This document shows, piece by piece, positions 2,884 to 54,520 of a stretch of 64,000 nt of DNA. A program made the translations under genes and the position numbers. The stretch is taken from NCBI GenBank assembly GCA_035277665.1, contig DATEKC010000148.1, positions 3,164 through 67,163 of the forward strand, given 5' to 3'. Every line of letters begins with the position of its first letter. Position 1 is the stretch's first letter. The DNA is from Terriglobia bacterium (GTDB taxonomy: Bacteria; Acidobacteriota; Terriglobia; UBA7540). Below the pieces are notes generated by a model that ran no database searches, was not told the DNA's origin, and worked only from the letters and a program-made list of their open reading frames with translations.

Positions 2884-2884
2884 C

Positions 2885-37959: not shown

Positions 37960-38113
37960 GTGAGAAGGAACCTTGCGGTCGCCTGCGCGAGTGCAGGAAG
38001 AAAGATGGTAATTCGTGGTTGCAGGCCCGGCGTAAAATTGCCGGCAGCATTCACAAAATGAGGAGGTTATAACGCGATGCTTCGCCTTTTCTTATACCAA
38101 AGGACGGTGATAG

Positions 38114-38410: not shown

Positions 38411-38414
38411 AACG

Positions 38415-39131: not shown

Positions 39132-39346
39132 CCCCCGCAGGCACAACCACATACATCCTGCGGGCGCCAGGGCGGAAACGCCGGCGCCAGCGGTAAGCGT
39201 CCCAACCTGCGATTCACGACCTCGAACGACCCGCCGAAGTAGCCAGGCGAAACGGCAGAAGCCAAGCGTGAACCTCGTCACAATCATGAGTGATGTGGCT
39301 CACTGCGAGGGTTGAATCCCCTATGTAGAGTATACCTAACATACCG

Positions 39347-39418
39347 CCCGGGAATCCGCCCCAGCGGCCGACGGTTTGCCCCACACGCGCCGTTCGATTC
39401 CCGGGCCTACTTTTTTTT
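39347..39418 (+). terminator. Large hairpin followed by T8 (terminator or 3' end of an unannotated RNA)
   Basis: CCCGGGAATC (39347-39356) pairs with GATTCCCGGG (39396-39405). After 5 nt comes TTTTTTTT (39411-39418). The 39-nt loop is atypically long. Confidence 0.35.
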
Positions 39419-39849
39419 ATCACTCGTTCAATCCTCAGCGCGGTTCCGTGGTGGCTCATGCTGGTCTTGTGGTGCTTGGCCTCAGTCCGGAACGGCTCCA
39501 AAATGCCAGCCTGAAGTTAAGCGCTGCGGCAAGCTGAGCCGTTGTCCAGCGTCCAAGCTCGACTTCTGTTCAACACCTGCGCACCCATTCACCGGAGGCG
39601 CACCTGTCCCGGTTTCGCACTCGATCGTGCGCAGCAGGAAAGCCGACTCCAAAATAGAATTTCAGTATCGCGACGTGTACTTGATGCCAGCCCATTCATG
39701 CAAGACAAGCATGGCCATTCCTCCACGATACTGATTCGGCTGGATCGCAATCACAACGGCTTGTGAATAGAGGCACTAGGCAAGGTGACAGTCATCACTG
39801 CCTGCATCAGTTGATCCTTATAAACTCACCACAGGTTAAGGGCAGAGCC

Positions 39850-40323
39850 ATGAAAGGAATTCAGCAGCCAGTTATCGGAACTCCCAAGCCAGGCAAGCTC
39901 AGGAATCCCCTGCCGCCTGTGGCCCTCACGGCATTGAGGTCCATTCAGACAACAAAAGTTTTCCCCAAAGGACACGAGTTTTTCCTGGAGGGACAATCGC
40001 CGCAGGGCATCTACATCCTTTACTCTGGCCGGGTGGAACTTTCCGTAACGGACGCATATGGGCGGCAAATGGTGCTGGGTGCAGCGCTGCCGGGCGATGT
40101 TCTGGGGCTGAGCGCAGCGCTGTCAGGGAAATACTACGAGGAAAATGCCGTTGCAACTGTCCCCTGCCAGACGGGCTTCGTCAAGTGCCCGGAATTTCTC
40201 AAGTTCCTGGGCCATCATCCCGAGGCTGCCTTCTGGGTTGTCCAGCTTTTGAGCGACCGCGTAACCACCACTCTCGACCAGCTCTCCTGCATCCATCGCC
40301 TGCCGCTGAAGGCCCTCCATTAA
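39850..40323 (+). CDS. Stand-alone cyclic-nucleotide-binding domain protein (Crp-like, no HTH)
   Basis: The beta-roll motif HEFFLEGQSPQGIYILYSGRVEL and dimerisation helix are present. The ORF stops right after the C-helix. Only 43 nt remain before the convergent cydB stop. Confidence 0.7.
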   Translation: MKGIQQPVIGTPKPGKLRNPLPPVALTALRSIQTTKVFPKGHEFFLEGQSPQGIYILYSGRVELSVTDAYGRQMVLGAALPGDVLGLSAALSGKYYEENAVATVPCQTGFVKCPEFLKFLGHHPEAAFWVVQLLSDRVTTTLDQLSCIHRLPLKALH

Positions 40324-40366: not shown

Positions 40367-41383
40367 TCAGTAGTGGCCTTCCTCCAGCCGTACCTTGCCG
40401 TGGAACACCCGGTGGACGTAAATGCTGTAAACAACCACGGCAATCATGCCAACTAAATTAGCAATCAGCGACACGCGAAGTGCGTGCGGCGAAGAGGCGG
40501 AATTGTAAATGTTCAGGCTGTATTGCGGGCTGACAGTGGAAGGAAGAAGGTTTGGAAACACCGTCAGGGCAGCCGTCAGCATCAGAGCAACGATGAGCAG
40601 GATGGAAGACCGGAAGGCGGCGCTGCTGCGGTCCGTCCCTCGGGACAAAAAGCCCCAAACCAGTGCAGCCAGGATAAAGAAGGGTATCACCCAGGCCGCA
40701 GGATAAACCTGAAACGTGCGCGGGCTGCCGGAAAGGACAATGAACGTGGCGATCGTAACCACGATTACCATCGCCACCACAAGCCGCCAAAGCGTCCGCG
40801 ACCACCTGACGGCCCTCTCGAACAGTGCGCCATCTGTCTTGACCCGCAGATAATTTGTCCCATGCCAGGCCAGCGCCACCACGGACAGAATGCCCGTGAG
40901 CAGCGAATAGGGGTTAAGCATCAGGCCAAAAGTTCCCTGGAAATTTCCGTCCGCGCCAATGGGCAAGCCTCGGACAACGTTCCCGAGGGCAACGCCCAGC
41001 AGCAAAGCCAGTAGGATGCTGCCCACCCAGAAACCTGCGTCCCAAAGCGCCCGCCACAAAGGATTCTGAGACTGGCTCCGGAACTCGATGGAAACGCCGC
41101 GAAGGATCAAAAGCCAGAGGACCAGCATCAGGGCCAGATAAAAACCGCTGAAGCCCACGGCATAAATCCGCGGGAATGACACCACCATCATGCCTCCCGC
41201 AGCTATCAGCCAAACTTCATTGCCGTTCCAGACGGGCCCGATAGAATTGAGGGCCAGGCGCCGCTCCTCGTCGGTATTTGCGATCCAGAGCGAGATGGAC
41301 CCAACACCCAGATCATACCCGTCCAGCACGGCGTAAGCTGTCAACATCGCTCCAAGCACCCAGAACCAGATTATGTTGATCAC
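40367..41383 (-). CDS. cydB: Cytochrome bd ubiquinol oxidase subunit II
   Basis: N-terminal IWFWVLGAMLTAYAVLDGYDLGVG is the CydB signature. 8-9 TM helices. GTG start with a GGAGG RBS. Confidence 0.9.
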   Translation of the reverse strand: MINIIWFWVLGAMLTAYAVLDGYDLGVGSISLWIANTDEERRLALNSIGPVWNGNEVWLIAAGGMMVVSFPRIYAVGFSGFYLALMLVLWLLILRGVSIEFRSQSQNPLWRALWDAGFWVGSILLALLLGVALGNVVRGLPIGADGNFQGTFGLMLNPYSLLTGILSVVALAWHGTNYLRVKTDGALFERAVRWSRTLWRLVVAMVIVVTIATFIVLSGSPRTFQVYPAAWVIPFFILAALVWGFLSRGTDRSSAAFRSSILLIVALMLTAALTVFPNLLPSTVSPQYSLNIYNSASSPHALRVSLIANLVGMIAVVVYSIYVHRVFHGKVRLEEGHY

Positions 41384-41479
41384 TCCAAACCTCCATCGGC
41401 CGGTATCTGTTCTGTCTTTGCCCGGCTTCCAAAGGGATTGCGGCGGTGGTTTTGCCTTCTCCGCCCTTCAGTCGGCATG

Positions 41480-42814
41480 TTACGCATGTGCCCCCGTTTC
41501 TTTCTGCGGCCCGCGGTGGATGATGCGGGCCACCAGGAACAGGAAAAGTATGCCCAGGATGGCATAAATTCCGGCAAATCCCATCGTGGTGAAGATGGTC
41601 TCTCCGGCGGCAACATTGGCGGAGGTCCCCGCGGGCGTCTTCATCAACCCGTACACAAGCCAGGGCTGCCGGCCCACTTCAGAAACCACCCACCCGGCCT
41701 CATTGGCGATGTACGGAAAAGGGATCGTGACCATCAGCATCCACAGAAACCATCGGCTAGAGTAAAGCTTGCGCCTCCACAAAAGGAACAGGCCGATCAG
41801 CATCTGGGCAATGAAGATTGTGCCCAGCCCGACCATGATGTGATAGCAGTAGTAGGTGAGTTCGACAGGCGGCCAGAGGTCCCTCGGATAGCTGTTCAGC
41901 CCGCTGACGGTGGCGCGGAAATTGCCATAAGCCAGGAAGCTGAGAAATTCCGGAACGTAGATGGGATCAATCAGCTTGTCGGTTTCCGTGTCCGGCATCC
42001 CCACAATCGCCAGTGCCGCGCCCCGCTCGGTTTCAAACAGGCCTTCCATGGCGGCAAGCTTGGTGGGCTGGTACCGGACCACGCTTGCGCCGTTCATGTC
42101 TCCAGTGGGGAACAATTGTGTGAGCGAAAGAATCACTCCGGCCACAATCGCGGTCTTCACCGACAGCATGCCAAATTCCCTGTGGCGCTCCGAAAGAAGG
42201 TAGAACGCGCCGAGACCGCCAATCACAAAAGCGGCCGTCAGCAGCGCACCATTGATGGTGTGGGCATATTGCCAGATCGCGTAGGGATTCAGCAGCACAG
42301 CCCAGAAGGACTTCAATTGAATGGCCCCTGAAGCGTCCATCACGTACCCCACCGGGTGTTGCATCCAGGCGTTGGTGGCAACGATAAAATAGCCCGACAG
42401 CAGGGAGCCGAAGGCCACGCCGAGGCCGGAAATCCAGTGCATCGTCCTGCCCACGCGCTTCTCGCCCGCCAGAAACATTCCCAGGAATCCGGACTCCAGA
42501 AAGAACGCATAGACGCCCTCCAGGGGGAGCGTTTGGCCGAACACTCCGCCGCCGAAACTTGAGAATCGGCTCCAGTTGGTTCCGAACTCAAACTCCAGAG
42601 GAATGCCCGTCACAACTCCGATTGCAAAATTGACGGCGAAGATCTTTGCCCAGAATTGCGCGGCGCCGGCATAGCGTTCGTCTTTTGTCCAAATGTGCAG
42701 CGTTGAAAAAAGGGCGATGAAAAAACCCAGCCCCATGGTGAGAATGGGGAAAAGGTAGTGGAACATCACCGTGAATGCGAACTGAATGCGGTGAGCAAAA
42801 ACAGCTTCGTTCAT
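41480..42814 (-). CDS. cydA: Cytochrome bd ubiquinol oxidase subunit I
   Basis: RIQFAFTVMFHYLFPILTMGL, the Q-loop region and GWVVSEVGRQPW are canonical CydA motifs. Confidence 0.95.
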   Translation of the reverse strand: MNEAVFAHRIQFAFTVMFHYLFPILTMGLGFFIALFSTLHIWTKDERYAGAAQFWAKIFAVNFAIGVVTGIPLEFEFGTNWSRFSSFGGGVFGQTLPLEGVYAFFLESGFLGMFLAGEKRVGRTMHWISGLGVAFGSLLSGYFIVATNAWMQHPVGYVMDASGAIQLKSFWAVLLNPYAIWQYAHTINGALLTAAFVIGGLGAFYLLSERHREFGMLSVKTAIVAGVILSLTQLFPTGDMNGASVVRYQPTKLAAMEGLFETERGAALAIVGMPDTETDKLIDPIYVPEFLSFLAYGNFRATVSGLNSYPRDLWPPVELTYYCYHIMVGLGTIFIAQMLIGLFLLWRRKLYSSRWFLWMLMVTIPFPYIANEAGWVVSEVGRQPWLVYGLMKTPAGTSANVAAGETIFTTMGFAGIYAILGILFLFLVARIIHRGPQKETGAHA

Positions 42815-42989
42815 AGACCCTCCCTCAAGCGGATGCGGACCACCCTGGCGGTGCCCCCCGCCACAGCATCAGGAAGAAGGCGCCGGCGCGCGGGCAGGCT
42901 GGAGGGGGGCATCCATGCGTCGCGCTATGCTCGAGAGGGTGGCGGACCGGCCAGCCACCTTGACGATTCTCCAGTCAAAAATTCGATGC

Positions 42990-44234
42990 TCAGGCTGACC
43001 GGGCAAACCTCCAGCATTCCTGCGCAATCGCCCATTCTTCACGCGCCGCCACCACCACCACCGGAATAGCGGAATCCGCACTGGCAATGTCGCAATCCAC
43101 AGGCGAGCCGCCATTCTTTTGCCGGTCAAGCTTGAGGCCAAGAAAATCCCAGCCGGAGCAGGCAGCGGCGCGCACCTCAGGCGAGTTCTCACCGATGCCG
43201 CCGGTAAAGGCCAGTGCGTCCACGCCGCCGAGCGAAGCGATCATCGCTCCAATGTATTGCCGCAAACGGTGAATGAACGTATCAAAGGCCAGGCCGGCGC
43301 GGGCGTTGCCTTTCTTGATGGCGGAGAGAATTTGCCGCATGTCGTCGGACACTCCCGACACTCCCAGCAGGCCGGATTCGCGGTTCAGGAGCTCCTCCAA
43401 CCGGTCAGCGGAATATTTTTCTTCCCTCAGCAGATGGATGAGAATTCCAGGATCGATGGTGCCGCAGCGGCTGGCCATCATCAATCCTTCGAGAGGCGTA
43501 AAGCCCATGGTCGTATCTACGCCGTGCCCATTCCGCACGGCCGCCAGCGAGCAACCGTGGCCCAGATGGCAGGTGACGATTCGCAATCGTTCAACGTCCT
43601 TGTGCAGGATCCCGGCCGCGCGCCAGGCGCAGTACTGGTGGCTGATGCCGTGAAAGCCATAACGCCGGATGCCGCGTTCGTACCAGGCGTAGGGGCCGGG
43701 ATAGATAAAAGCGTGTTTCGGAAGTGTCTGGTGAAATGCCGTGTCAAACACAGCCACCTGGGGCCGCGATTTGAAAATCCCTTCGGCGATCTCAATGCCG
43801 CTGACCTCGGCGGGATTATGCTCCGGAGCAAACGGCGACAGGCTTTTGATCTCCTGCTTCATTTCTGCCGTCACTCGCGTAGGCTCGGAATATTTCTCGC
43901 CCCCGTGGACGACGCGATGGCCCACCACGTCCACCTCTTCCGGGCCGGCAAGCACGCTCGCCGGGCCTTCCCAGAGGGTCTGCAACAGATAACCGGCGGC
44001 CGCGCTTTCCGAATCAAGGTCGGGCTGCTCGTCCATCACCTGGCGCCCTTCGCGTTTGGCCCGGAGCCGCACATTGCCGAACGGCTCTTCCCATTCCAGG
44101 CGGCCTTCCCACAAAGGAACAGGAGGCGCTTGCGGCAAGGAATCCGCCAGCTCGTAGAGGCAGCTTTTCAGGCTGCTTGAGCCCGCGTTGAGCACCAGGA
44201 CTTTCTTGCGATCTTTGATTGCTTCATGGAGCAA
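42990..44234 (-). CDS. ackA: Acetate kinase
   Basis: VLVLNAGSSSLK, VGHRVVHGG, YGFHGISH and FTGGIGENS motifs. Confidence 0.95.
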   Translation of the reverse strand: MLHEAIKDRKKVLVLNAGSSSLKSCLYELADSLPQAPPVPLWEGRLEWEEPFGNVRLRAKREGRQVMDEQPDLDSESAAAGYLLQTLWEGPASVLAGPEEVDVVGHRVVHGGEKYSEPTRVTAEMKQEIKSLSPFAPEHNPAEVSGIEIAEGIFKSRPQVAVFDTAFHQTLPKHAFIYPGPYAWYERGIRRYGFHGISHQYCAWRAAGILHKDVERLRIVTCHLGHGCSLAAVRNGHGVDTTMGFTPLEGLMMASRCGTIDPGILIHLLREEKYSADRLEELLNRESGLLGVSGVSDDMRQILSAIKKGNARAGLAFDTFIHRLRQYIGAMIASLGGVDALAFTGGIGENSPEVRAAACSGWDFLGLKLDRQKNGGSPVDCDIASADSAIPVVVVAAREEWAIAQECWRFARSA

Positions 44235-44375
44235 TTTTCGCGCCTTCCTTAATAAGGCAGGTAAAGGCCTTGGGCAACCGGTCAGACAGGTGTTGGGTTA
44301 GATACTTACAGGGCAGAATATCATCCAGCACGAGCATTCGCAACCCGAAGCGCCACCGAAGATGCCGGCCCACCC

Positions 44376-45848
44376 CTATTGAGCTGGCCCGGTGGTTCCG
44401 CCCAAACCAAGGTCCGTCAGAATCTTGGGGTTGGCCTCGCCCATCGAAAGCAGGTTGTGGCAAACACTGCAATCCTGCGTAATCATTTTGCTCGTATCGG
44501 AAGCCTCGTGCAGAGTTCCATGGCAGCGGAAGCATCCGGGGAAGTTCATGTGCCCGAGGTTGTTGGGATAAGTTCCCCAGTTGACGTTCATTTTGGGGAA
44601 AACGTTCTCCTGGTAGATGGCAGCAAGCTCCCTGGCGGCCTTGGATACTTCCGCGCGGTGCTGAGAAAGCACCTGTGGGTAATTCTGGCTGTAGTACTGG
44701 ACCAGCCCGGAAGAGATCTTTTCCGCGGCTTCGTTCTGAGTGTTGTACCTGGCCTGCAGAAGCGTCAGACCTTCCTTCTTCACAAACGGAAGCGACGGCG
44801 GAATGTCACCGCGCGCCATGGCTTCGTCCACGGCGTCGCCGGGAAGGTGAAAAATGTGGGTCGGCTGATTGTGGCAATCAATGCAATCCATCACCCGGCC
44901 GCTTGCAGGGTTGACGGTCCTGGGATTCATCTTGTCATTGACAAAGAGCGTTTTCTTGCCCGTCGTGGTGTTGACGTATTCGACCCAGTTCATTTTCTGG
45001 CGGCTCGAATCAGACCCGTACCGGATGGTAATTCCCGGCCCCACGTGAGCGCCGTGGATTCCGCCGCGGCCGTCCCCTCCGCCGATATGCATCAGCAGCA
45101 CCGTCCTGGTCATGGTATTTGCCGCGTCGTCAGCGTAGTGCGGGATGACCACCAGGCGGTTACCTTCAAACCGCGCCGGCCAGTGGCACTGCTCGCAGGT
45201 TTGCCGCGCCGGCCGCAGGTTGGAGACCGGAACGGGAATGGGGCGAGGATAGACATTGAAGATGGTTGCAAAAACCTGATAGGAGCCCGACAACTTGCTG
45301 CGCACAAACCAGGAAGCTCCCGGACCAATATGACATTCCACGCAGGCCACCCGCGCGTGGGGGGAGTGTTCGTAGGCAACATATTGCGGCTGCATGACGG
45401 TGTGGCAGGTCTTCCCGCAAAAGGTCACGCTGTCCATATAATTCACGCCGGAGTAAAGAAGCTGGGCGCCGATGATCAGGTTGACGACGGTTGTCACCCC
45501 CACGAAGAAAAGCAATTTGCGCAGTTCCGCGTTCCTGAAATCCAGGGGAGGAAAATCGGAAGGATAAATGCCGCGGTGCCGCTCACGCCGCGCGCGAAGA
45601 ACAATGCCCAAAGGGATGAGAATGAGCCCGCCGAAAAAGACCGCGGGCAGGCCCATAAAAGTCAGAATCCCGGCATAAGGATTGTCCGTAAAACCGCGCA
45701 AAGTAACAGGCAGCAACAACAACCACAGAACAGCGCCAGTGGTGACAAGCACAACCCCGATCAGGCTGAGGCAATTCCCTGAGAGATACACATACGGTGT
45801 GAGCCATTTCTTCAGTCCCTTCTCTTGATTAACCATCCGTGCTCCCAT
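44376..45848 (-). CDS. Membrane-anchored multiheme cytochrome c, NapC/NirT-related (6 CXXCH; ImcH-like architecture)
   Basis: Two to three N-terminal TM helices, then CGKTCH, CVECH, CEQCH, CIDCH, CFRCH and CSVCH. The start is ATG 45848 or 45836. Confidence 0.8.
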   Translation of the reverse strand: MGARMVNQEKGLKKWLTPYVYLSGNCLSLIGVVLVTTGAVLWLLLLPVTLRGFTDNPYAGILTFMGLPAVFFGGLILIPLGIVLRARRERHRGIYPSDFPPLDFRNAELRKLLFFVGVTTVVNLIIGAQLLYSGVNYMDSVTFCGKTCHTVMQPQYVAYEHSPHARVACVECHIGPGASWFVRSKLSGSYQVFATIFNVYPRPIPVPVSNLRPARQTCEQCHWPARFEGNRLVVIPHYADDAANTMTRTVLLMHIGGGDGRGGIHGAHVGPGITIRYGSDSSRQKMNWVEYVNTTTGKKTLFVNDKMNPRTVNPASGRVMDCIDCHNQPTHIFHLPGDAVDEAMARGDIPPSLPFVKKEGLTLLQARYNTQNEAAEKISSGLVQYYSQNYPQVLSQHRAEVSKAARELAAIYQENVFPKMNVNWGTYPNNLGHMNFPGCFRCHGTLHEASDTSKMITQDCSVCHNLLSMGEANPKILTDLGLGGTTGPAQ

Positions 45849-46087
45849 CCTCCTCAGCCTGCCTGGCTTTGCGCCCCTGTTCGCGCTCGCGCGTCACAGC
45901 ATTTCCCCCGCTTTTTGAATCGCTCCGCTAGATGGTAGGACCGGCCAGCCCTGCTGGTCAACCCACTTGCTACCAGGGGCGGGCCTGGCGGAATGCCCCA
46001 CAGGGCTCCTTGCTGATGAGGCCGCAGGAATCGCTGCATTAGGAGGATGCCCGAGGCATTTTCCTGAAGCCCCACCTCAGGCTATGC

Positions 46088-46915
46088 TCACTGGCGGAAC
46101 GAAAACAGGGTGAGCAGGAGCAGAACGAAACCCGTGGCGATAGCGGCAAAGCCCACCACCTTGCCGGCCACGACAAACCATCTCTGCGGTTGCTCTGCCC
46201 GGAGGCCCTCAAGGCTGCCCTGTGCCAGCAGGCGCTCATACTCCGCGGGGTGCTTTTCCTCCAATTCCTTCCTGGTTTGACGGCCCGTGAAAATCACCGT
46301 GTCCATCGGGAAGCTGCCGGGACGCAGGTGGGTGTTGAAAAAGTGAATCGTGAAAATGAACCAGACGGCAAGCAGGGCCTCGTCTCCATGGAGAAGCAGT
46401 GCAACGTTGAACCACGACCCCGGCAAAAGCCTCGCGACGGGTTGCGCAAACCACATGCTGTAGCCGGAGAACCCGATGATGGCCATGCCCCAGAAGACAG
46501 CCCAGTAATCGAACTTTTCCCAGTAGGCGTAGCGGTCAAATTTGGGTTTCGGCCCCAATCCCAGGAACCAGCGAAAATGGGCCCCCAGTTGCATAATATC
46601 CCTGGGTTGCGGCACAAGAGATTCAGGCCCCCAAAGCATTCCAAACCTTTTCTGGACGAAAACCAGGCGGAGAATGTTTCCCACATGAACAAGAAAGGCC
46701 GCCGTCAACAAAACGCCAAAGGCTTTGTGGAAAAAGAGGATGGCGCCAAGCCCACCCACTCCATGCGCGAAGGCCGAGGCCCACCCGGCAGAGCCGAAGC
46801 GAAGCGTCAGCCCCGTCAGTGCCAGGCCCAGAAACGAGGAGAACAGCATCCCGTGAAGCAATCGCTTGCCAGGCGAAAACCGGTAGTAGTAGCTCTGCTC
46901 CTGTCGATTTTCCAT
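46088..46915 (-). CDS. Membrane b-type cytochrome (FdnI/HydC, Ni/Fe-hydrogenase cyt b family-like)
   Basis: 275 aa, 4-5 TM helices with conserved His in helices (RLLHGM, FFHKAF, LVHVGN, LLHGDE). It lies 15 nt after the 11-heme cytochrome gene. Confidence 0.72.
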   Translation of the reverse strand: MENRQEQSYYYRFSPGKRLLHGMLFSSFLGLALTGLTLRFGSAGWASAFAHGVGGLGAILFFHKAFGVLLTAAFLVHVGNILRLVFVQKRFGMLWGPESLVPQPRDIMQLGAHFRWFLGLGPKPKFDRYAYWEKFDYWAVFWGMAIIGFSGYSMWFAQPVARLLPGSWFNVALLLHGDEALLAVWFIFTIHFFNTHLRPGSFPMDTVIFTGRQTRKELEEKHPAEYERLLAQGSLEGLRAEQPQRWFVVAGKVVGFAAIATGFVLLLLTLFSFRQ

Positions 46916-46930
46916 TTCACCTCTGCGGCG

Positions 46931-48172
46931 TTATTTGGACGCAACTTCTTCGCCACTTCTCCCATTCTTCCGGCGCTCCACCAGGGAGCGGAGAAACCAG
47001 AGAATCGTATGCAAACCGAAAAAGGTAAAGACCGCCAGCATCAGGAAATTCATAAAGCGCGCCGTGTAATAAAGTCCCGGGTAATGCGTGCTGTCGCGAG
47101 GGTTGGCGTGCGGATCGTATGACACAAAGCCCTTCGAGACGTTTTCATGGCATTGCCCGCAGGTCTTTTGCAGGTTTGCCGGGGCAATGGAGGATTCCGG
47201 GTCAGACGCCGGGAGAATCTCGTGGGCGTGGTGGCAATTCCAGCAGCGGGCTGTCACCACGAAGCCCAGCGCCGTCACCTGGCCGTGGAAAGTGTCCTGA
47301 TAAGTGGCCGCCCGGGCGGAGTGGCAACTTCCGCATCTGGATGTCGTCTTTAACTGAAAGGAGGCTGTCCGCACACTCACAATGGAATGTGCCGTATGAC
47401 AATTGGTGCAGACAGGCACCTCGGAATTGCCGGCGCGCAAGCCCTTCCCATGAGCGCCACGGAAATATTTTGCCTCAATCCCGGCATGGCAGGCGCCGCA
47501 CGTCGCCGGAATATTCTTGCGTGACACGGGGCTGTGCGGGTTATTGGGAGCCAGAATTTTGTGCGCCCCATGGCAGCTTGTGCAGGTGGCGGCGACCAGC
47601 AGACCGTCGCGGGTTAGCGCAAATCCATGGATGGAATCGATGTAGAGCGAATAAACATTCGGCAGGCCGTACTCCCTGGCCAGGCGGGGATTTCCATGAC
47701 AGGTGCCGCACGTACGTGGAAGGTTCAGCGCATAGACCGGCGAACGGGAGTCATGCACAGAAACGACGGCGTGCGGGTCCCCGTGGCAGTTCAGGCACGC
47801 CGATGAAGAAGGGTCCTTCATCACCAGGTGATGAACGCTCACTTGAAAATCCGAGTCGGCGCTGGCATGGCAGCCGGCGCATGCAACCGTCTTGACCGGC
47901 AGTTTGTGAGGGAATTCCGTGACGCCGGAGTGGCAAGCCTGGCAGCCCAGCGCGCTGTGGACGGAAGTACTGAATACCTTCGGATCAACGGAAGCGCTGT
48001 GACCTTTAGAATCTTTGAAGCCCGCCTCACCGTGGCAGGCCAGGCAGTCGCTGCTCGATAGAGAGCCGGAACCCTCTGCCCAGCTTACGGATGCGAGCAC
48101 AAGCAATGCAACCGACACCCCGACGCACCGCTGCCAAGCGTTCATGTTGAGCCGTTGTTTCGAGGGAGTCAA
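46931..48172 (-). CDS. Undecaheme c-type cytochrome with a C-terminal membrane anchor
   Basis: Signal peptide, then 11 CXXCH motifs (CLACH, CQACH, CAGCH, CLNCH, CGTCH, CTSCH, CGACH, CTNCH, CGSCH, CWNCH, CGQCH). Terminal TM helix FMNFLMLAVFTFFGLHTILWFL. Confidence 0.9.
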   Translation of the reverse strand: MTPSKQRLNMNAWQRCVGVSVALLVLASVSWAEGSGSLSSSDCLACHGEAGFKDSKGHSASVDPKVFSTSVHSALGCQACHSGVTEFPHKLPVKTVACAGCHASADSDFQVSVHHLVMKDPSSSACLNCHGDPHAVVSVHDSRSPVYALNLPRTCGTCHGNPRLAREYGLPNVYSLYIDSIHGFALTRDGLLVAATCTSCHGAHKILAPNNPHSPVSRKNIPATCGACHAGIEAKYFRGAHGKGLRAGNSEVPVCTNCHTAHSIVSVRTASFQLKTTSRCGSCHSARAATYQDTFHGQVTALGFVVTARCWNCHHAHEILPASDPESSIAPANLQKTCGQCHENVSKGFVSYDPHANPRDSTHYPGLYYTARFMNFLMLAVFTFFGLHTILWFLRSLVERRKNGRSGEEVASK

Positions 48173-48175
48173 AAC

Positions 48176-48457
48176 TCATCCCGGCAATTTGGCGCCTTGC
48201 TGCCACACGAATTGCAGATACAGGGCTCCAATCACCAGGCCATAAACCACAACGATGGCGGTCAGGATCTTCCCCCACCGCTCGATGACTTCCAGTCTAT
48301 GGCTGAGTTTGACCTGGGCGGCGACCTGGGGTGCATCGCCGTCCAGAACATGAAGAGTTTCGTCTTCGTGGCTGGCCATCATATTCCGATAGATGGCCAG
48401 CACCCCCACCACTACCGCAAGAGGGATCCATGTTGCAAGATAGAACGTGAGGTTCAT
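48176..48457 (-). CDS. Small two-TM membrane protein
   Basis: 93 aa with hydrophobic helices at both ends. It is tightly packed between cytochrome genes (3-nt gap downstream). No family recognised. Confidence 0.5.
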   Translation of the reverse strand: MNLTFYLATWIPLAVVVGVLAIYRNMMASHEDETLHVLDGDAPQVAAQVKLSHRLEVIERWGKILTAIVVVYGLVIGALYLQFVWQQGAKLPG

Positions 48458-48514
48458 ACTAACCTCCAGTCGCGATTTCTGCGTGTCTCTGATCCGGGAA
48501 AATTCCCGGAGCGG

Positions 48515-48745
48515 CTACTGGCCTGCCTTGGCCGCAGATTCGCAAGCCTTCAGGTCTTTCTTCTTGGCATAGCATTTGCCTACATCGTTCAGGTCTTTTT
48601 GTCCCATTTTCACGTGGCACGTGGTACACGAAGTTTTTTCCTTCTTCGCAATTTCCATGGTGCCAGATGAAGAAATGGAAGACATCGCAAGGGCCACGCC
48701 CAGGGTGATGCCGAATACTGCAAGCTTCCTGATGGTGCTCATCAT
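48515..48745 (-). CDS. Small exported monoheme c-type cytochrome
   Basis: GGAGG 5 nt before ATG 48745. Signal MMSTIRKLAVFGITLGVALAMS, single CTTCH, Lys-rich. Confidence 0.65.
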   Translation of the reverse strand: MMSTIRKLAVFGITLGVALAMSSISSSGTMEIAKKEKTSCTTCHVKMGQKDLNDVGKCYAKKKDLKACESAAKAGQ

Positions 48746-48797
48746 GATTACCTCCGAACGCATCCGGCAGGTGATGGCGCAAGTTCTGAATCGTTCC

Positions 48798-49151
48798 TTA
48801 CTTCTTCTTGCCCAACTGGTGAATATAGGCTACAAGGTCGTCAATTTCTTCCTTGGAAAGCTGGCTGCCATAGCCCGGCATGATCCCTTTGCCGTTGGCG
48901 ATGAAGCTGTGAAGGTCAGCGTTCGACATGGACTGCACAGCCTTCGAGCGCAGGTCGGGAACCTTCATGTTCTTACCCATGGGACTGTTTCCACTGCCGT
49001 CCTTCGCATGACACATTGCGCACTTGGCATCAAATGTGGGTGCAGCGTCTTTGGCCTGGGCCCTGTAGGCTGGAGTCAGAAGCCATGCGCCGGCCAGCAG
49101 GGCTGAGAAAATTGCAAGTGCTGCAGTGTTAACGACCTTGTTCATTATCAT
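48798..49151 (-). CDS. Class I monoheme cytochrome c (c551/c6/MtoD-like)
   Basis: Signal peptide, CAMCH, distal GIMPGY Met ligand context, and a C-terminal helix EEIDDLVAYIHQL. Confidence 0.85.
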   Translation of the reverse strand: MIMNKVVNTAALAIFSALLAGAWLLTPAYRAQAKDAAPTFDAKCAMCHAKDGSGNSPMGKNMKVPDLRSKAVQSMSNADLHSFIANGKGIMPGYGSQLSKEEIDDLVAYIHQLGKKK

Positions 49152-49238
49152 TTCCTCCTTGTGACATTCCTCTTTGGGAAACCACGCTTCAATAAATCAT
49201 CCTTTGTTTCCGGTCCAATTTCAACCGGCCTGTTACTG

Positions 49239-51254
49239 CTAAAAGTCACGCGTCCAGCGAATCATCAATATGTTGGCGCCAAAATTGTTGGCGCTGATCG
49301 GGTAGAGCTGTTGGGTGTAATAGGTGCGCTGCAGGTCAACAGAAAGCCTGCCGGCCCCGGGGATATTGAAGTAAACCGTGCCCGTGCCGAGCGGCCAGGT
49401 CAACGGCCCGTAAACGGGAGAGATCCCGCCCTCTTCACCTTGACCGGTGGTGCGGACAAAATTCCCGGTAAAGCTGATTCCGAAGTACTTCACGGGTTCA
49501 GCAGCTAGCCCGCCCTGCCAGACGCGGTTGAGGGCCTGGTCGCGAAGCGGGAACGGCGTCCCGGCGACAGGCACGCCGCGCTGGTAGGCGATGATGCCGG
49601 TAGCCAGTTCATTATCGTAGGTGAAACCACCAAACACCGAGTATTTCGGGCTAAAGGTGTACGTCAGCATCGTGGCGTTGGACTGGACTTTGCCCTCAAA
49701 CTGCGTCTCCAACAGCCTCTGACTCACCGTATAGATCTCATCGCTCAGAGTGAACTTGCTCGTCAGGTGGGCGTTCGCAACCACGCGCCCGGTGGTATTG
49801 GTGTGCGCGGTCAGCGCGGTGTAGGAAGCGCCATTATTGTAGGTGTGGATCTCGCCCCGCACATCGAACCACTTCGAGGGACGATAGAAGGCGCTGAGAG
49901 CGGGCGACACGGCGCGGTTCCGGAGCGTGCGTGCGGGATCGGCCTCACCGTCCTCCAGGACCTCGGCATCGGACTTGTACATCGTGACCCCGGGGCTGAT
50001 TACCAGGTTGTTGAGGGGCGTGAAGATCATTTTGAGGCTGCCCTCGTGAAGGCCGAATTTCCAGTTATTGGCATTCTCCTCGCTCGAAGCTACCGGAAGA
50101 GCAGCAACTCCTCCCGTGATTGCCGTGAATGTGCTGGTGAAGGTGCCGGTGGCCTCAGTTGTAAACCTCGAATAGCGGTAATCCAGGTCGATGTCCCACC
50201 AGGGCTTGATATGAAACGTTAAACCCTGCTCCGCAATATTGTTCGGTTCGCTGACTTGTACCCGCCCGCTTTGAGACACGGTGTAGGTTGTTGGCGGATT
50301 GACGCCGCTGAATGACTGGTCAAGGGTGGCAGGTCCACTGTAACGGTAAAAGAGGTAACTGCCGCGGACTTCCACCCAGGAATTTGGATTTCCGGTGTAG
50401 GAAAATTCACTGACCGGCGTCGTCAGCCTCCGGAAATCGGTCCATGACGCCGCCGTGAGGGGCGCGCCGGCCGTTCCAGCTATGGACAGCTCGCCCGGAG
50501 AAGTCGGGTTCAGTGTGATATTGTCGTCAAAAGTCTGGTAACCAACGTTGTAGTGGAAATTCCAATTGTTCCAGGTGTAGTCGATGCCTCCCGCAATGCG
50601 GTTGGCATTATCAAATGTGGGTGCGTATAAAGAATAGGCGTTGGCACGAGCATAGCCGCCCCAGCTTCCCGGCGAGTCCAGAAAATCCGGAGAGAACGTC
50701 GTGAAGGTCGGACCGGTGAACGATGTCTTGTAATACTGGAAGTGGAATCGCAGGTTGTTGGTGGCATGCACCGTAAAATCAACGGACCCGATTTTGCGCA
50801 CCGTGGACCAATCGTGATTATTGGTGAGCCCGGGCACGTTGAGCGTCGGAAGAATGACTCCGTCGTTCTGGTTCCAGTAGAAGTATGACTGGCGCCAGCT
50901 GGCGCGGAAATCGTAGACCTTGGATTTGGACAGAGTAAGCTGGGCGCCGGGATAAGGGTCGCCGCCCATGCCACTCATGGTGAGCGAAAAATCGTTGGCA
51001 AAAGCATTAGGATCGTTATTGTGTCCGAACAGGCTGAAGTCCATGAGCCGGGGTCCGCTCTTCAGGTCAAAAAGCTCCTCAAACATCGGCTCATAACCTT
51101 TCACATCTGTGAAGCGGTACCCCACGCTGGCGGAGCCCTGGACGCCGAAACCTCCCCACTGGAGTTGAGGTTCGCTCTGGTCCTGCGCCCTGAGCACAGG
51201 CAAACTTACCAGCAAAGCTAACACCAGGAAGAACAAGCTACGTCTGATTTTCAC
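49239..51254 (-). CDS. Large outer-membrane beta-barrel, MtrB/PioB-like (cytochrome-associated porin)
   Basis: GTG 51254 with GGAGG 6-7 nt upstream. Signal VKIRRSLFFLVLALLVSLPVLRAQ. About 670 aa of alternating-polarity strands rich in Y/F/T/N/G. C-terminal ...IRWTRDF ends in an aromatic residue. It lies 10 nt after the MtrA-like gene. Confidence 0.7.
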   Translation of the reverse strand: MKIRRSLFFLVLALLVSLPVLRAQDQSEPQLQWGGFGVQGSASVGYRFTDVKGYEPMFEELFDLKSGPRLMDFSLFGHNNDPNAFANDFSLTMSGMGGDPYPGAQLTLSKSKVYDFRASWRQSYFYWNQNDGVILPTLNVPGLTNNHDWSTVRKIGSVDFTVHATNNLRFHFQYYKTSFTGPTFTTFSPDFLDSPGSWGGYARANAYSLYAPTFDNANRIAGGIDYTWNNWNFHYNVGYQTFDDNITLNPTSPGELSIAGTAGAPLTAASWTDFRRLTTPVSEFSYTGNPNSWVEVRGSYLFYRYSGPATLDQSFSGVNPPTTYTVSQSGRVQVSEPNNIAEQGLTFHIKPWWDIDLDYRYSRFTTEATGTFTSTFTAITGGVAALPVASSEENANNWKFGLHEGSLKMIFTPLNNLVISPGVTMYKSDAEVLEDGEADPARTLRNRAVSPALSAFYRPSKWFDVRGEIHTYNNGASYTALTAHTNTTGRVVANAHLTSKFTLSDEIYTVSQRLLETQFEGKVQSNATMLTYTFSPKYSVFGGFTYDNELATGIIAYQRGVPVAGTPFPLRDQALNRVWQGGLAAEPVKYFGISFTGNFVRTTGQGEEGGISPVYGPLTWPLGTGTVYFNIPGAGRLSVDLQRTYYTQQLYPISANNFGANILMIRWTRDF

Positions 51255-51264
51255 GCGAAACCTC

Positions 51265-52662
51265 CTATCGCAGCAGGAACTCATCAAAGTTTGAGCCATG
51301 GATCGCCACATGGCAGCGTGTGCAGTCTCCGGAAGTCTGGAACCCGTGCCGGCCGTGCGGCACGTTGGCTTGACCGTGAAAACCACCATCGGCTCCATGT
51401 AGATCAACGTGGCATTGCAGGCACAGCAGCCGTTGCTCGCGCCGCTTCAGCAAGAAATTGTTCACGCTGCCGTGCGGAGTGTGGCAGGAGGTGCAGCCCT
51501 CCACTCTCACGACTGCGTGCTCAAAAACAAACGGACCGCGCTTTTCCACGTGGCATTTCACGCAACTCTCCCAGTTGGTCTTGTTCAACTGGAAGTGGTT
51601 CATGGTGCCGTGCGGGTTGTGGCAATCCGTGCACTTCATGAAGCCTTCGCCCACCCGGTGGTGTTCCGGCAGCGCGAATTGCGCCTGCACCGTCTGGTGG
51701 CAGCCGAAGCAGAGCTCGGGCTGCGGCTTCTTCAACAACCCATCCGTCAGCCAGGCGTTCTCCTCTTTCAGCCTGGGAACGGAGAAGAACGCGGCCTGGG
51801 CCGGCTGCAGCCTGGGCTTCCCGGCATCCGCCACTTCAACCGGATGGATGCTGTGGCAGTCAATGCAACCAACGCCCGCCGTGGCGTGTACTGAATGCGG
51901 GAAGGAATCCTGCGGTGTTCCGGTCTGGTGGCATTGCATGCACCGCTCCGAGTTTTCTTTGGGGCTGCCGCCGAACTTGTAGATCAGCTTCATGCCGGCT
52001 TCCATCTTTGTCGGGTCACCCGCAGCTTCCTGCTCGGCGTGCGCATGGGCGGCGCCCGGCCCGTGGCAGACTTCGCACCCGGTCACATGCCTGGGGCCTG
52101 AGGTGGCGGGGGCTTGCGCCGATTGGTTCTGGTCCTGCCCCTTCAGCGTCATCAGGTAATCAACCAGTTCGTTAAGACTCTTCGTGGGAGTGTCGGGAGG
52201 AAGCGTGGGCATGATGGTTCCAGCCCGCCGCTTGAGCATGCGGTCCATCAAATCCTCGTGGGTCCTGCGGGCACCCACATCGCCCAGGGCCGGGCCGGCC
52301 GTGCCGCCTTTGCCGCCTATCTGGTGGCAGCCTGCGCACATCATGTCGATGTAAAGCTTCCGGCCTGCCGCGACGGAGGGAGACTCCGCCGCTCCGGAGG
52401 AGGCTGGAGCAGCCTCGACTTCTCCGCCCTGCTCACCGTGAGGGGACTTGAAAAACTGACGGGCCTCCGCACGGTGGCAACCCGCGCAAACCTGCGGCCC
52501 CACATAATCATTGGGGTTGGTCTCCACAGGCGCCTTCCAGGCAACCGATGGCCCCTTGGCAGGGGCCGGCTGCCTCTGAGCGTAGAGAAATGCCGTTGGC
52601 AGGAATCCAGCCAGGCAGATCAACAACGCAGCGATCTTGATGGAACTCAGCAGTCGCTTCAT
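51265..52662 (-). CDS. Periplasmic multiheme cytochrome c, MtrA/DmsE-family-like (11 CXXCH including one class-I module)
   Basis: ATG 52662 with RBS GAGGGGA. Signal MKRLLSSIKIAALLICLAGFLPTAFLYA. Heme motifs CAGCH (twice), CEVCH, CMQCH, CIDCH, CFGCH, CTDCH, CVKCH, CTSCH, CLQCH and CTRCH. DmsE/MtrA-like contexts RGPFVFEH, GCTSCHTPHGS and CHVAIHGSN. Confidence 0.85.
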   Translation of the reverse strand: MKRLLSSIKIAALLICLAGFLPTAFLYAQRQPAPAKGPSVAWKAPVETNPNDYVGPQVCAGCHRAEARQFFKSPHGEQGGEVEAAPASSGAAESPSVAAGRKLYIDMMCAGCHQIGGKGGTAGPALGDVGARRTHEDLMDRMLKRRAGTIMPTLPPDTPTKSLNELVDYLMTLKGQDQNQSAQAPATSGPRHVTGCEVCHGPGAAHAHAEQEAAGDPTKMEAGMKLIYKFGGSPKENSERCMQCHQTGTPQDSFPHSVHATAGVGCIDCHSIHPVEVADAGKPRLQPAQAAFFSVPRLKEENAWLTDGLLKKPQPELCFGCHQTVQAQFALPEHHRVGEGFMKCTDCHNPHGTMNHFQLNKTNWESCVKCHVEKRGPFVFEHAVVRVEGCTSCHTPHGSVNNFLLKRREQRLLCLQCHVDLHGADGGFHGQANVPHGRHGFQTSGDCTRCHVAIHGSNFDEFLLR

Positions 52663-53286
52663 GTCGCTCTCCCCTCTTTCACATTGGTTGACCATTGAAC
52701 TCCTCTTCTCAGACAAACTAAGTCATCAACAACAGGTAACCCTTGTCTGGCTCATCGGCCCAATGCCCCGACGCCTTCAGCGGAAACGCCGGCGCCGGCG
52801 ACGCCCCAGCCGGGTCCCCGGCCGGAGCTATGCGCCTGGCTTGCGCGCGATTAAGGTTTGAACCTGAACTTTTGTGATTTGGCTCAGTTTGCGACCGTCC
52901 CCGACGGCTCATCGCTTCACCGGCAGTCTGAGAAGGAGCAGTTTGAACCAGACTCAAGGAAAAGCCGGATATATGAACCGACAGGAGGCTCGATTTGTGG
53001 CGAACGTCGCATACCGGATTCATGGTAGTGAAGTAATGAAAATATTTTATGTCGGTAATATTTTTGATTGCTCTCCTCGGCCTGAGAGAAGTTTTTCTGC
53101 AGGCAAGAGACATTTTCCTGGGGCTGGCATGGCATTCGGCTTTCGGAATTGTTCTCAATTCCATCTCAACGATCCCTATCGGGCTCGCCATGGTTCTTCG
53201 CCATATGAGCGGTCCCGACCTTACCTTCAAGTAACCATTTCTATCAGTCGGCCGACCACCCGGCAGTGAGCTTGCTCACGGTCGCG

Positions 53287-53302
53287 TGTGACCGAAATCA
53301 CA
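53287..53302. promoter_or_regulatory. Perfect CRP-type palindrome TGTGA-N6-TCACA
   Basis: TGTGAccgaaaTCACA read directly. It lies in the 1.1-kb non-coding region upstream of the cytochrome operon. Confidence 0.4.
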
Positions 53303-53812
53303 TAAAGGAGCTTGCGGCTGTTTCGGCCTTTGTTTTCATTCAATTCTGAAAGAATTACAGGTCGCTGGGTGGGTGAAAATTTTGAGGTTGTTTCGGGTCC
53401 CTATGTGACCTGGCGGCAATGGAAATAAAGGCTGCGGACACAGAGATTCAGGGAGAAGATTTCCCCGGCATCTGGGCTGATTTCCCTGTTGAGTTCAAGG
53501 AACAGTCAGCTTGGGACTGGCCCGAGGCCACGCCGCACAAAGCGAAGCTTTTCGATGAAAATTGGACGGACCTTCAGGTCGCCAGACGCACTGGTCCGAG
53601 GCCGAGTCCGGCCCAGGGGGTAATTTTCATTTTTGGCGGTTTTTTCTGCAGGCGGGTTGAAGGCAGGCAAGCCTGTTAGCCACCGGGCTTTATTCGCCCT
53701 GCTTGGAGTGCGGCAACGCCAGCACTGCCATGGAATCGAACAAGGCGGCAGATCTGCTGCCGCACTCCAGGAGCTTCGCCGTAAGCCGCATCAAAATGCC
53801 GGCCGCACAATA

Positions 53813-54181
53813 CTAGCCCGGCAGATGCGACTCCATCCGGCTGATAGCCTGCCGCAGCCAGGCCTTTACGGCTTCCTGCATCTGATTTTGATTTCCCTTT
53901 TCTTCCAGTCTCTCGACGGTTTGTCCGGATGAATCCAGTGGAATATGGTGGCAGGGCATCGGCGACACTCGACTGTCCTCGGGAACAAATTCCATCAGAG
54001 GGCACTCGCCGCAGGGGTGAACTCGATAGGGGTATCCATAATTGAGACAGGTGAGAGAGTCTGAAAACATCGTTGCCGCCGCACCCGATTGTAGTTTGTC
54101 CGGGGCCCCATATCCGCCGCGTTCAATAAACTCCAGCTCAGACTTCAAGATTTCCAGAATATCCTGCTGATCTTTGGGCAT
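53813..54181 (-). CDS. Hypothetical Cys/His-containing small protein
   Basis: AGGGGGA RBS 7 nt before ATG 54181. 122 aa with C-x13-C-x2-C ... C-H-H. No family recognised. Confidence 0.5.
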   Translation of the reverse strand: MPKDQQDILEILKSELEFIERGGYGAPDKLQSGAAATMFSDSLTCLNYGYPYRVHPCGECPLMEFVPEDSRVSPMPCHHIPLDSSGQTVERLEEKGNQNQMQEAVKAWLRQAISRMESHLPG

Positions 54182-54520
54182 AGCGTTTTCCCCCTTCGAA
54201 GTACTCCATTCGACATGGGCCACGCCACACGTGTCCTTCTGAGTGCGAAGCCTAAGACTCTTTAAGCGCTCAATCCGTGATGCCCGTCACACTGAGATGT
54301 GATTTTCGTAATGCACTGCGGGATTCGCACCATGGTTGTTTCCGCGCGAGACGGGCCAAAGATACACCCTGCCCTTCGCTTCAATCGACATCTCCTTCTC
54401 AGTCGCTGAAACTGCTTTAGTGGTCGCGCTCTGCTTCGGATTTCCGCCCAATTCTGGTCAGCGCTTCTGGCAAACTCGCGCCCGCCCCGGCCCACCTTAG
54501 CGAGCTTCCTGGTTCCGTCC

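Follow-up and report, generated by a model that had tools for sequence, protein, structure and literature searches.

The closest described relatives of the gene cluster reported here are the porin-cytochrome systems of Fe(II)-oxidizing and metal-reducing bacteria. Gallionella capsiferriformans ES-2 and Dechloromonas aromatica RCB, two betaproteobacterial Fe(II) oxidizers, carry the genes mtoA-mtoB-mtoD-mtoC, which specify in this order a decaheme cytochrome, a barrel, a monoheme cytochrome and a CbcL/MtoC-type module, with no MtrC-type surface cytochrome (PMC6295460). The Mto system of Sideroxydans lithotrophicus ES-1 (MtoA, MtoB, MtoD, ImoA/CymA, PmcA) likewise includes a conduit without MtrC, along with two cluster-encoded periplasmic monoheme cytochromes and an inner-membrane NapC/NirT-related cytochrome (PMC13390432). 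In Shewanella, MtrCAB works with CymA and its expression is activated by CRP (PMC7198977; PMC4417206). Geobacter sulfurreducens has both ImcH and CbcL, the latter combining 9 hemes with an FdnI/HydC-like cytochrome b; the imcH and cbcL genes are unlinked and their products work with the Pcc/Ext/Omc outer-membrane systems (PMC6295460). A 2018 survey found no mtrAB or mtoAB genes adjacent to imcH (PMC6295460). Here we analyze a 64-kilobase (kb) stretch of DNA from an uncultured soil Terriglobia bacterium (contig DATEKC010000148.1; hereafter the window, to which all coordinates refer, stop codons being counted in gene spans) in which eight consecutive genes (g1 to g8; 44376-52695, minus strand) join a predicted MtrAB-like pair to ImcH-like and CbcL-like genes. 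We favor, as probable though by no means assured, the view that these genes form an extracellular electron-transfer operon of the Mtr/Mto kind, placed under low-oxygen control and leaning toward outward electron flow.

The order of the genes in the window is that of the Gallionella and Dechloromonas clusters, with a decaheme-type cytochrome, a barrel, a monoheme cytochrome and a CbcL/MtoC-type module, and the surface cytochrome is lacking in both cases. Unlike those clusters, the window has the module split into two genes with 11 hemes, adds an ImcH-like gene, a mini cytochrome and a protein with two transmembrane (TM) helices, and encodes an MtrA with an inserted class-I heme domain; its host is a heterotroph-type soil acidobacterium. 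With Sideroxydans the window shares the conduit without MtrC, the two periplasmic monoheme cytochromes and an inner-membrane cytochrome related to NapC/NirT. The exact Sideroxydans-like order (mtrA, mtrB, monoheme cytochrome c, ~210-amino acid NapC/NirT-type gene) is found in distant Acidobacteriota loci, whereas the window has ImcH-like and CbcL-like modules instead of the small NapC/NirT protein. Furthermore, MtoD is a bis-His cytochrome (PMC13390432), while g3, the gene in its position, encodes a Met-ligand motif and has no detectable similarity to it. The features shared with Shewanella are the MtrA homolog, the MtrB-like 26-strand barrel and a CRP-type box. The differences are the absence of MtrC/OmcA, a barrel without CXXC, a regulator with FNR-like cysteines in place of a plain cAMP receptor, and quinol dehydrogenases of the ImcH and CbcL types rather than CymA. 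Finally, g8 shares the architecture of Geobacter ImcH, though with 6 heme sites versus 7, and fused relatives of g6 and g7 share that of Geobacter CbcL. As in Geobacter, ImcH and CbcL types occur in one organism; in the window, both share an operon with mtrAB.

Although Acidobacteriota count among the most abundant bacteria in soil, their role in iron and humic redox cycling rests on few isolates and on generic marker-gene matches. Homologs of Mtr, Mto or Pio in Acidobacteria are mentioned in surveys, and such mentions were all that our literature search returned on this acidobacterial cluster, with no description of it. A 2014 porin-cytochrome survey makes no mention of Acidobacteria. Relative to the literature searched, the new elements are the presence of ImcH-like and CbcL-like genes in an mtrAB operon, an MtrA with a built-in class-I domain, the split CbcL-like module, and a conserved CRP-type operator alongside an FNR-like regulator. 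The analysis delimits a compact acidobacterial family of MtrAB-type conduits, offers testable handles on extracellular iron reduction versus oxidation, and revises the view of acetate kinase and bd oxidase as built-in parts of the system.

Eleven consecutive minus-strand open reading frames (ORFs) lie within 40367-52716; with refined starts, the genes occupy 40367-52695, g1 to g8 being followed by ackA, cydA and cydB. An earlier note on this DNA had described 11 co-directional minus-strand genes and the gaps between them. This layout is borne out by the ORF coordinates and by independent soil-metagenome contigs of the same organism, which give identical calls for all eleven genes. The predicted products measure 476 (g1), 671 (g2), 115 (g3), 76 (g4), 93 (g5), 413 (g6), 275 (g7), 486 (g8), 414 (AckA), 444 (CydA) and 338 (CydB) amino acids, and the gaps separating the genes from g1 to cydB are, in order, 10, 93, 52, 57, 3, 15, 251, 141, 175 and 96 nucleotides (nt). 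The start of g1 was set to 52695; position 52662, used in the earlier note, is an in-frame Met 11 codons downstream. Motifs for c-type heme attachment number 11 CXXCH in g1, one each in g3 and g4, 11 in g6, and 5 CXXCH plus one CX3CH in g8, for a total of 30 sites within 8.3 kb. Since CXXCH is otherwise confined to one ORF of the 64-kb window, which has a single copy, the concentration of cytochrome genes is real. The closest species-level genome, "Terriglobia bacterium SMAG_U1107", is 98% identical, which identifies the host as an acidobacterium, as the note had surmised. When one genome per GTDB species was scanned, 150 loci matched, the best 80 of which are used in all synteny counts. The synteny table was built by tblastn, and loci were also analyzed by ORF profiling; individual loci are designated by L numbers.

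The first two genes encode the predicted outer-membrane conduit. The g1 product (51265-52695, minus strand) is a periplasmic multiheme cytochrome of the MtrA/MtoA/DmsE family. It passes the TIGR03508 model (DmsE family decaheme c-type cytochrome) with 209.3 bits against a cut-off of 192.2, and its top match in the PDB is the heme chain of the Shewanella baltica Mtr complex (6r2q_A, 333 residues; E 4.1e-32; g1 residues 320-471 aligned with 174-326). A class-I cytochrome c domain (PF00034/PF13442) occupies residues ~108-181, between heme motifs 1 and 2, so that g1 is best described from its domain matches as a predicted decaheme core with an inserted class-I monoheme cytochrome c domain. The insertion accounts for the eleventh heme, and relatives devoid of the insert have 355-376 amino acids and 10 motifs. 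A recent origin of the insert as a copy of g3 was ruled out, BLASTP aligning only the heme-motif region (E 0.004). The g1 and g2 genes are 10 nt apart, and the MtrA gene lies directly upstream of the barrel gene in all 80 loci; the g1 cytochrome would thread the g2 barrel to form a trans-outer-membrane complex.

Identification of g2 (49239-51254, minus strand) as an MtrB-like outer-membrane beta-barrel of ~26 strands comes from an AlphaFold2 model compared with known structures by Foldseek. The protein itself has a signal peptide and zero cysteines, and gives no Pfam (PF11854 included, E <= 1), NCBIfam or PDB sequence or profile match. However, PF11854 (MtrB_PioB) is matched by 6 of 22 aligned relatives (best E 7.3e-7). 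The model, built on the relatives, has 26 long strands and a mean pLDDT of 65.7. Its top Foldseek match is 6r2q_B of the Mtr complex (E 1.6e-11, TM-scores 0.62/0.63), the next matches being TonB-dependent transporters and other barrels with TM-scores of 0.3-0.4. On the basis of the model, g2 is accepted as a predicted MtrB-like barrel at the level of the fold. An N-terminal CXXC is typical of MtrB in metal-reducing Gammaproteobacteria. Lacking cysteines altogether, g2 does not have this motif, which marks the gammaproteobacterial reducer subgroup and not the MtrB/PioB/MtoB family as a whole. In some distant loci (L039 and L065), genes for 16-heme cytochromes (499-519 amino acids) and for 5-7-heme cytochromes lie ~0.7-2.4 kb downstream of the barrel; these proteins could be the surface partners which the window lacks.

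The barrel gene is followed at a distance of 93 nt, in the position of mtoD, by g3 (48798-49145, minus strand), coding for a periplasmic class-I monoheme cytochrome c (PF13442, E 4e-15) whose relatives in the PDB include Kuenenia c-552, CcoP and cytochrome c6. The GIMPGYG motif suggests His/Met ligation, and there is no MtoD-named chain among the 48 PDB matches at E <= 0.01. Next comes g4 (48515-48745, minus strand), a mini monoheme cytochrome of 76 amino acids. It has a signal peptide and a single CXXCH, and its identity within the subclade that carries it is 50-92%. In three loci, a g4-like gene adjoins an ImcH-like gene outside the mtrAB operon (L028 ~2650-4400, L030 ~2186-3970 and L060 ~3052-4850). 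Given this pairing away from mtrAB, g4 may be a dedicated partner of the ImcH-like protein. The following gene, g5 (48176-48457, minus strand), whose stop codon is 3 nt ahead of the g6 start, encodes a 93-amino acid protein with two transmembrane helices according to hydropathy. It has no match in Pfam or NCBIfam scans, and its identity across the subclade (66-91%) is above that of its neighbors.

The distribution of monoheme genes among distant loci was compared with the type of MtrA by Fisher's test. Of 44 loci with a 10-heme MtrA, 40 have a separate monoheme gene after the barrel, as against none of the 7 loci with an 11-heme MtrA (p 2.9e-6), although the 7 insert-bearing loci may form a single clade and would thus not represent 7 independent events. 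From this pattern, the class-I cytochrome appears to be either a separate protein or a domain built into MtrA beside heme 1. The window's clade carries both, the MtrA insert and the separate gene. Heme 1 of the solved Mtr complex lies at the periplasmic end; together with the complementary distribution, this position supports the monoheme cytochrome as a periplasmic partner of MtrA.

Two modules of the inner membrane complete the operon. One consists of g6 (46931-48172, minus strand), a periplasmic 11-heme cytochrome (11 CXXCH, PF14522, PF14537, terminal TM segments) with a C-terminal membrane anchor, and of g7 (46088-46915, minus strand), a membrane diheme b-type cytochrome of the FdnI/HydC type. 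The g7 product matches PF01292 with 33.8 bits against a cut-off of 30.1 and, weakly, TIGR01583 (formate dehydrogenase gamma). In CbcL, MtrH and MtoC, an N-terminal multiheme c domain and a C-terminal FdnI/HydC-like cytochrome b with 4-6 TM helices make up one polypeptide (PMC6295460). The window departs from this single-polypeptide form in that g6 and g7 are separate genes 15 nt apart. Some relatives, on the other hand, carry a fused protein with 9 CXXCH and a PF01292 domain (593 amino acids in L009, 13061-14842; 569 in L011, 13062-14771). By domain content, g6 and g7 can thus be read as a split CbcL/MtoC/MtrH-like module. The split version with 11 hemes and the fused version with 9 share one slot and are ~30% identical; where the version is fused, the ImcH-like gene overlaps the end of the fused gene. 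The presence of two CbcL-like versions at one slot looks like the result of a cassette replacement.

The other module is g8 (44376-45836, minus strand), an inner-membrane cytochrome with three N-terminal TM segments, one CX3CH, 5 CXXCH and a PF03264 match. Hydropathy peaks at residues 27-45, 66-84 and 112-130 (numbering of a 490-amino acid ORF), and the CX3CH motif (CGKTCH) stands at residue 140, right after TM3; orthologs in L009 and L011 have the same heme pattern. Likeness to NapC/NirT/NrfH is confined to residues ~102-221 (PF03264 at 113-198; NrfH chain 2j7a_C at 102-221, E 3.6e-4). Three TM segments, a CX3CH beside TM3, further CXXCH motifs and a NapC/NirT-like core are the features that define ImcH (PMC6295460). 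As g8 matches this definition, "ImcH-like", a label set by comparison with the published architecture, seems to fit the protein better than the "NapC/NirT-like" of the earlier note, most of whose other gene identities are upheld by family models. Also upheld is the envelope-spanning path that the note had recognized, g1 to g8 specifying an outer-membrane conduit, periplasmic monoheme carriers and quinol-level cytochromes of the inner membrane.

The conduit family is compact. It occurs in at least 150 species-level genomes, almost all of them metagenome-assembled genomes (MAGs) of Acidobacteriota; the 80 loci of the synteny set all come from MAGs, nearly all assigned to Terriglobia, Bryobacterales or "Acidoferrales". 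Relatives of the barrel number in the hundreds, and all named ones belong to Acidobacteriota or Terriglobia; a profile search of 1.84 billion representatives yielded 119 proteins at E <= 1e-30, a good number of which are fragments. The mtrA-mtrB pair is present in 80/80 loci, and a monoheme cytochrome gene of ~115-135 amino acids follows the barrel in most. In distant loci, the monoheme gene is followed by a ~210-amino acid gene with 3 CXXCH and TM segments; the gene at the small-cytochrome position of L013 matches PF03264 (NapC/NirT). Only loci whose barrel is at least ~58% identical to that of the window have g4, g5, the CbcL-like module and the ImcH-like gene. This g4-g8 subclade comprises 13 species-level loci with a co-directional g8, plus L060. 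Loci in MAGs labeled Verrucomicrobiia, Saccharimonadales, Aquilonibacter and Bordetella (L055, L081, L085 and L090) likely reflect mis-binning, horizontal transfer being the alternative.

Examination of the region upstream of g1 identified a perfect CRP-type palindrome, TGTGATTTCGGTCACA, as a putative regulator site (53287-53302, within a 22-nt site at 53284-53305). Located 592 nt upstream of the g1 start, it is the top-scoring site (20.2 bits) in a position weight matrix (PWM) scan of the 38-56 kb interval. A second, degenerate box, TGCGACGTTCGCCACA, lies closer to g1 (52993-53014; 2 mismatches, PWM 7.3 bits), at a place where close relatives have a perfect second box. The window as a whole contains 5 matches to TGTGA-N6-TCACA with at most one mismatch, against 1.26 expected, and four of them are intergenic and near the locus: upstream of g1, upstream of a gene here called hyp136, between two regulator genes, and between two divergent universal stress protein (Usp) genes. 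The seven best sites of the PWM scan adjoin g1, hyp136, a response-regulator gene and a gene for a protein with only a cyclic nucleotide monophosphate (cNMP)-binding domain. In related loci, the box is usually found twice upstream of mtrA, at ~-150 to -300 and -450 to -590; its density in the 800 nt upstream of mtrA is 0.72/kb, versus 0.054/kb elsewhere in the loci (13-fold). At least one box precedes mtrA in 14/17 close loci and in 14/51 distant loci. Beside the distal box of the window is another palindrome, GTGAGCAAGCTCAC (53265-53278), which recurs upstream of mtrA in L015 and L026. The 1.1 kb upstream of g1 (52696-53812) contains no convincing gene and no Rfam match, a scan of 39-56 kb having given none; relatives keep 380-1000 nt there. 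The length and conservation of this stretch imply a long leader or a complex control region.

A candidate for the cognate regulator is encoded on the plus strand at 38415-39131. This 238-amino acid protein of the Crp/Fnr family (PF00027, PF13545, PF00325) has the recognition helix TSRETVTR. The corresponding sequence in Escherichia coli CRP, which recognizes TGTGA, is SRETVGR; the resemblance makes the protein a candidate partner of the TGTGA-N6-TCACA box. In three distant loci (L054, L061 and L087), mtrA is immediately preceded by a gene for a homolog of the regulator. An alignment of orthologs displays an N-terminal C-x2-C-x8-C and further conserved cysteines; their resemblance to the cluster-binding pattern of FNR suggests oxygen or redox sensing. 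The protein might therefore act as an oxygen- or redox-responsive activator or repressor of the g1-g8 operon, which is probably induced at low oxygen. A search for FNR boxes (TTGAT-N4-ATCAA, up to 2 mismatches) gave 30 sites versus 20 expected, none of them in the relevant promoters, and an FNR-type box was therefore rejected. Sigma-54 promoter sequences (TGGCAC-N5-TTGCW) were fewer than expected, with nothing convincing in the gaps, and scans for terminators and the sigma-70 consensus returned sites no commoner than in shuffled sequences, with no terminator in the large gaps, and were thus uninformative.

Two further genes with boxes are conserved upstream of the operon. The Cys-rich 136-amino acid product of hyp136 (53813-54223, minus strand) has no Pfam or NCBIfam match, and its gene is conserved upstream of mtrA in the subclade. 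In the window, its own box is at 54273-54294; a box lies 53-100 nt upstream of hyp136 in all 11 orthologous loci in which the gene and its upstream sequence could be scanned. The protein could be an unrecognized accessory factor of the conduit system. Upstream of hyp136 is conserved a stand-alone response-regulator receiver protein of 145 amino acids (54521-54958, minus strand; PF00072), preceded by a weak box at 54987-55008. The protein with only a cNMP-binding domain (157 amino acids, PF00027, no helix-turn-helix; 39850-40323, plus strand) is encoded by a gene that converges on cydB and has PWM sites upstream at 39781-39802, 39264-39285 and 39286-39307.

These findings can be assembled into a model of how the system might work. 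The decaheme wire of g1, housed in the ~26-strand g2 barrel, would span the outer membrane, with the extra class-I heme domain located at its periplasmic end. The g3 and g4 monoheme cytochromes would ferry electrons across the periplasm, and two links to the quinone pool would be provided by the split CbcL/MtoC-like g6-g7 module and by the ImcH-like g8. Transcription most likely starts downstream of the TGTGA-N6-TCACA boxes; binding of the neighboring Crp/Fnr-family protein to them would turn the operon on when oxygen falls. Electrons would then travel outward, leaving quinol for Fe(III), Mn(IV) or humic acceptors outside the cell, and ackA and cydAB would be neighboring low-oxygen genes linked to the operon in one subclade only. 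The gene identities, the barrel fold, the synteny patterns and the box with its conservation come from the analysis itself; complex formation, the pairing of regulator and box, oxygen sensing and the direction of flow are the points of this model that we infer. As to direction, we lean somewhat toward outward over inward flow. All reported ImcH homologs come from Fe(III) reducers, and quinol oxidation is the only role in which they have been implicated (PMC6295460). Besides, ImcH-type and CbcL-type modules are both present, as in Geobacter, and the operon appears to be under low-oxygen-type control. In Shewanella, CRP acts directly on mtr genes, binding the omcA and mtrC promoters and activating them (PMC4417206), which points the same way.

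Several observations weigh against this scheme. Confidence in the g2 model is only moderate (pLDDT 65.7), and no MtrC/OmcA-like surface cytochrome gene was found anywhere in the 64-kb window. The perfect box stands 592 nt away from the g1 start codon, the proximal box carries 2 mismatches, and every genome carrying the cluster is a MAG. A conduit made of MtrAB only is the layout of the Fe(II)-oxidizing MtoAB and PioAB systems, and the order prevailing in the family (mtrA, mtrB, monoheme, small NapC/NirT) mirrors mtoA-mtoB-mtoD-cymA/imoA of Sideroxydans. Moreover, heme potentials cannot be read from sequence, as exemplified by PmcA, a His/Met cytochrome at -143 mV, and MtoD, a bis-His cytochrome at +155 mV (PMC13390432). 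In view of these values, we dropped an argument that took the His/Met motifs of g3 and of the g1 insert as signs of high potential and hence of Fe(II) oxidation (PMC13390432).

Some of the same observations would be accounted for by an Mto-like uptake system, in which the MtrAB-like conduit oxidizes Fe(II), reduced humics or minerals at the cell surface. The monoheme cytochromes would hand the electrons to a terminal oxidase; alternatively, the CbcL-like and ImcH-like modules would pass them to the quinone pool, from where the bd oxidase could draw on them at low oxygen. This possibility, which we rate as distinctly less probable than the scheme above while taking it seriously, draws on the lack of an MtrC-like surface cytochrome in the window, on the parallel in gene order with mtoA-mtoB-mtoD-cymA/imoA and on the resemblance to mtoA-mtoB-mtoD-mtoC of Gallionella and Dechloromonas (PMC6295460). 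Two further points are in line with it: the revised Sideroxydans model likewise has two monoheme cytochromes, and the barrel, being free of cysteines, has no CXXC, a motif typical of metal-reducing gammaproteobacterial MtrB. The proximity of cydAB might also be invoked, being kept in 9 loci and occurring once independently: in L072 (2985-5400), where the barrel is 49% identical, cydAB precedes mtrA by ~3 kb in the same orientation. However, one case among ~60 distant loci is within chance expectation, and the L072 adjacency was dropped as evidence. In 70/80 loci cydAB does not adjoin the cluster, and no regulator box is shared. Furthermore, g3 is not detectably MtoD-like (none of its 48 PDB matches bears that name), and ImcH homologs have so far been implicated in quinol oxidation only. 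Finally, the bd oxidase takes electrons from quinol only, so that a route from Fe(II) to this enzyme needs cytochromes that reduce the quinone pool. Fe(II) oxidation feeding the bd oxidase, as envisaged in the earlier note, is therefore possible in principle but unsupported.

A more speculative idea, to which we give slightly less credence still, is that abundant soil Terriglobia run an FNR/CRP-controlled conduit in both directions: under anoxia it would deliver electrons to Fe(III), Mn(IV) or humics, whereas at microoxic interfaces it would take them up from Fe(II) or reduced humics. The MtrA insert and the two monoheme carriers would then serve as the switch-point toward the ImcH/CbcL modules or toward oxidases. 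If this were true, a major overlooked bacterial group would be a direct player in the redox cycling of iron and humics in soil.

The remaining three genes code for acetate/propionate kinase (ackA, 42990-44234, minus strand; TIGR00016, 442 bits versus a cut-off of 293) and for subunits I (cydA, 41480-42814, minus strand; PF01654, E 1e-149) and II (cydB, 40367-41383, minus strand; TIGR00203, 230 bits versus a cut-off of 117) of a cytochrome bd quinol oxidase. The earlier note had joined them to g1-g8 in a supercluster, which we now regard as improbable if understood as a single co-expressed unit of all eleven genes coupling the conduit to ATP synthesis by AckA and to the bd oxidase. In favor of a single unit, all eleven genes point the same way and their gaps show no convincing terminators. 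Six species-level genomes (L014, L019-L022 and the species of L009; barrel identity to the window 69%-98%) retain the entire 11-gene block, and a dense sensory and stress island with Crp/Fnr, STAS, response-regulator, sigma-54 activator and Usp genes lies just past cydB. Comparison with other loci argues otherwise. The comparative check that the note had proposed confirmed conservation of mtrA-mtrB (80/80) and, in the subclade, of g4-g8, but not of ackA and cydAB, which follow the cluster in 8/80 and 9/80 loci, respectively. The ackA gene is missing from L023 and from L007/L017 (barrel 83% identical), an opposite-strand gene of 190 amino acids taking its place in the latter. Three loci (L027, L029, L032) keep g1-g8 followed by unrelated genes, with neither ackA nor cydAB, and, conversely, L025 and L026 retain ackA and cydAB while lacking g6/g7. 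In addition, ackA is preceded by its own conserved promoter-like element (TTGCGR-N17-TATTCT, resembling -35 and -10 sequences). No regulator box is found upstream of g8, ackA or cydA, where the best PWM score is 3.3 bits compared with 20.2 for the top site, and the window has no pta or phosphoketolase gene to feed AckA. The association of ackA and cydAB with the operon, not supported beyond adjacency, would thus be a lineage-specific feature of a low-oxygen and stress locus, with the genes separately promoted.

A role other than metal reduction or oxidation, in which electrons would reach an extracellular or periplasmic reductase as in DmsEF-like usage, or would protect against redox stress, is suggested by the DmsE-family model (TIGR03508) that g1 passes and by conserved partners of unknown function (g5, hyp136 and a 776-amino acid secreted protein encoded upstream), but it is very hard to sustain, as none of the loci examined has a gene for a molybdoenzyme or another terminal reductase within the cluster or close to it, and the quinol-level modules are those associated with extracellular electron transfer to metals.

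The Ser/Thr-rich 776-amino acid protein just mentioned is encoded at 55115-57445 (minus strand); it has no Pfam match and a weak match to NF058595, and larger homologs (968-1059 amino acids) occupy the same upstream position in L007 and L009. On the other side of the cluster, the sensory island extends on the plus strand from 34964 to 40323, between the Usp genes and cydB. It encodes a sigma-54 activator with PAS-PAS-GAF domains (34964-37321), a 138-amino acid receiver protein and a STAS protein (38114-38410), and includes the Crp/Fnr regulator and the 157-amino acid cNMP-binding protein described above. Beyond it lie the two divergent Usp genes (31988-33716), with the perfect palindrome TGTGACGGTGCTCACA between them (box at 33041-33056); these genes and the mtr-like operon are probably members of one regulon. 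Further out, ~10 kb from ackA, a minus-strand gene (28352-31126) encodes a 924-amino acid protein with an N-terminal part like ADP-forming acetyl/acyl-CoA synthetase and a C-terminal GNAT domain. The protein scores 553.7 bits with TIGR02717, just below the cut-off of 567, and has the architecture of Pat/PatZ-type protein lysine acetyltransferases.

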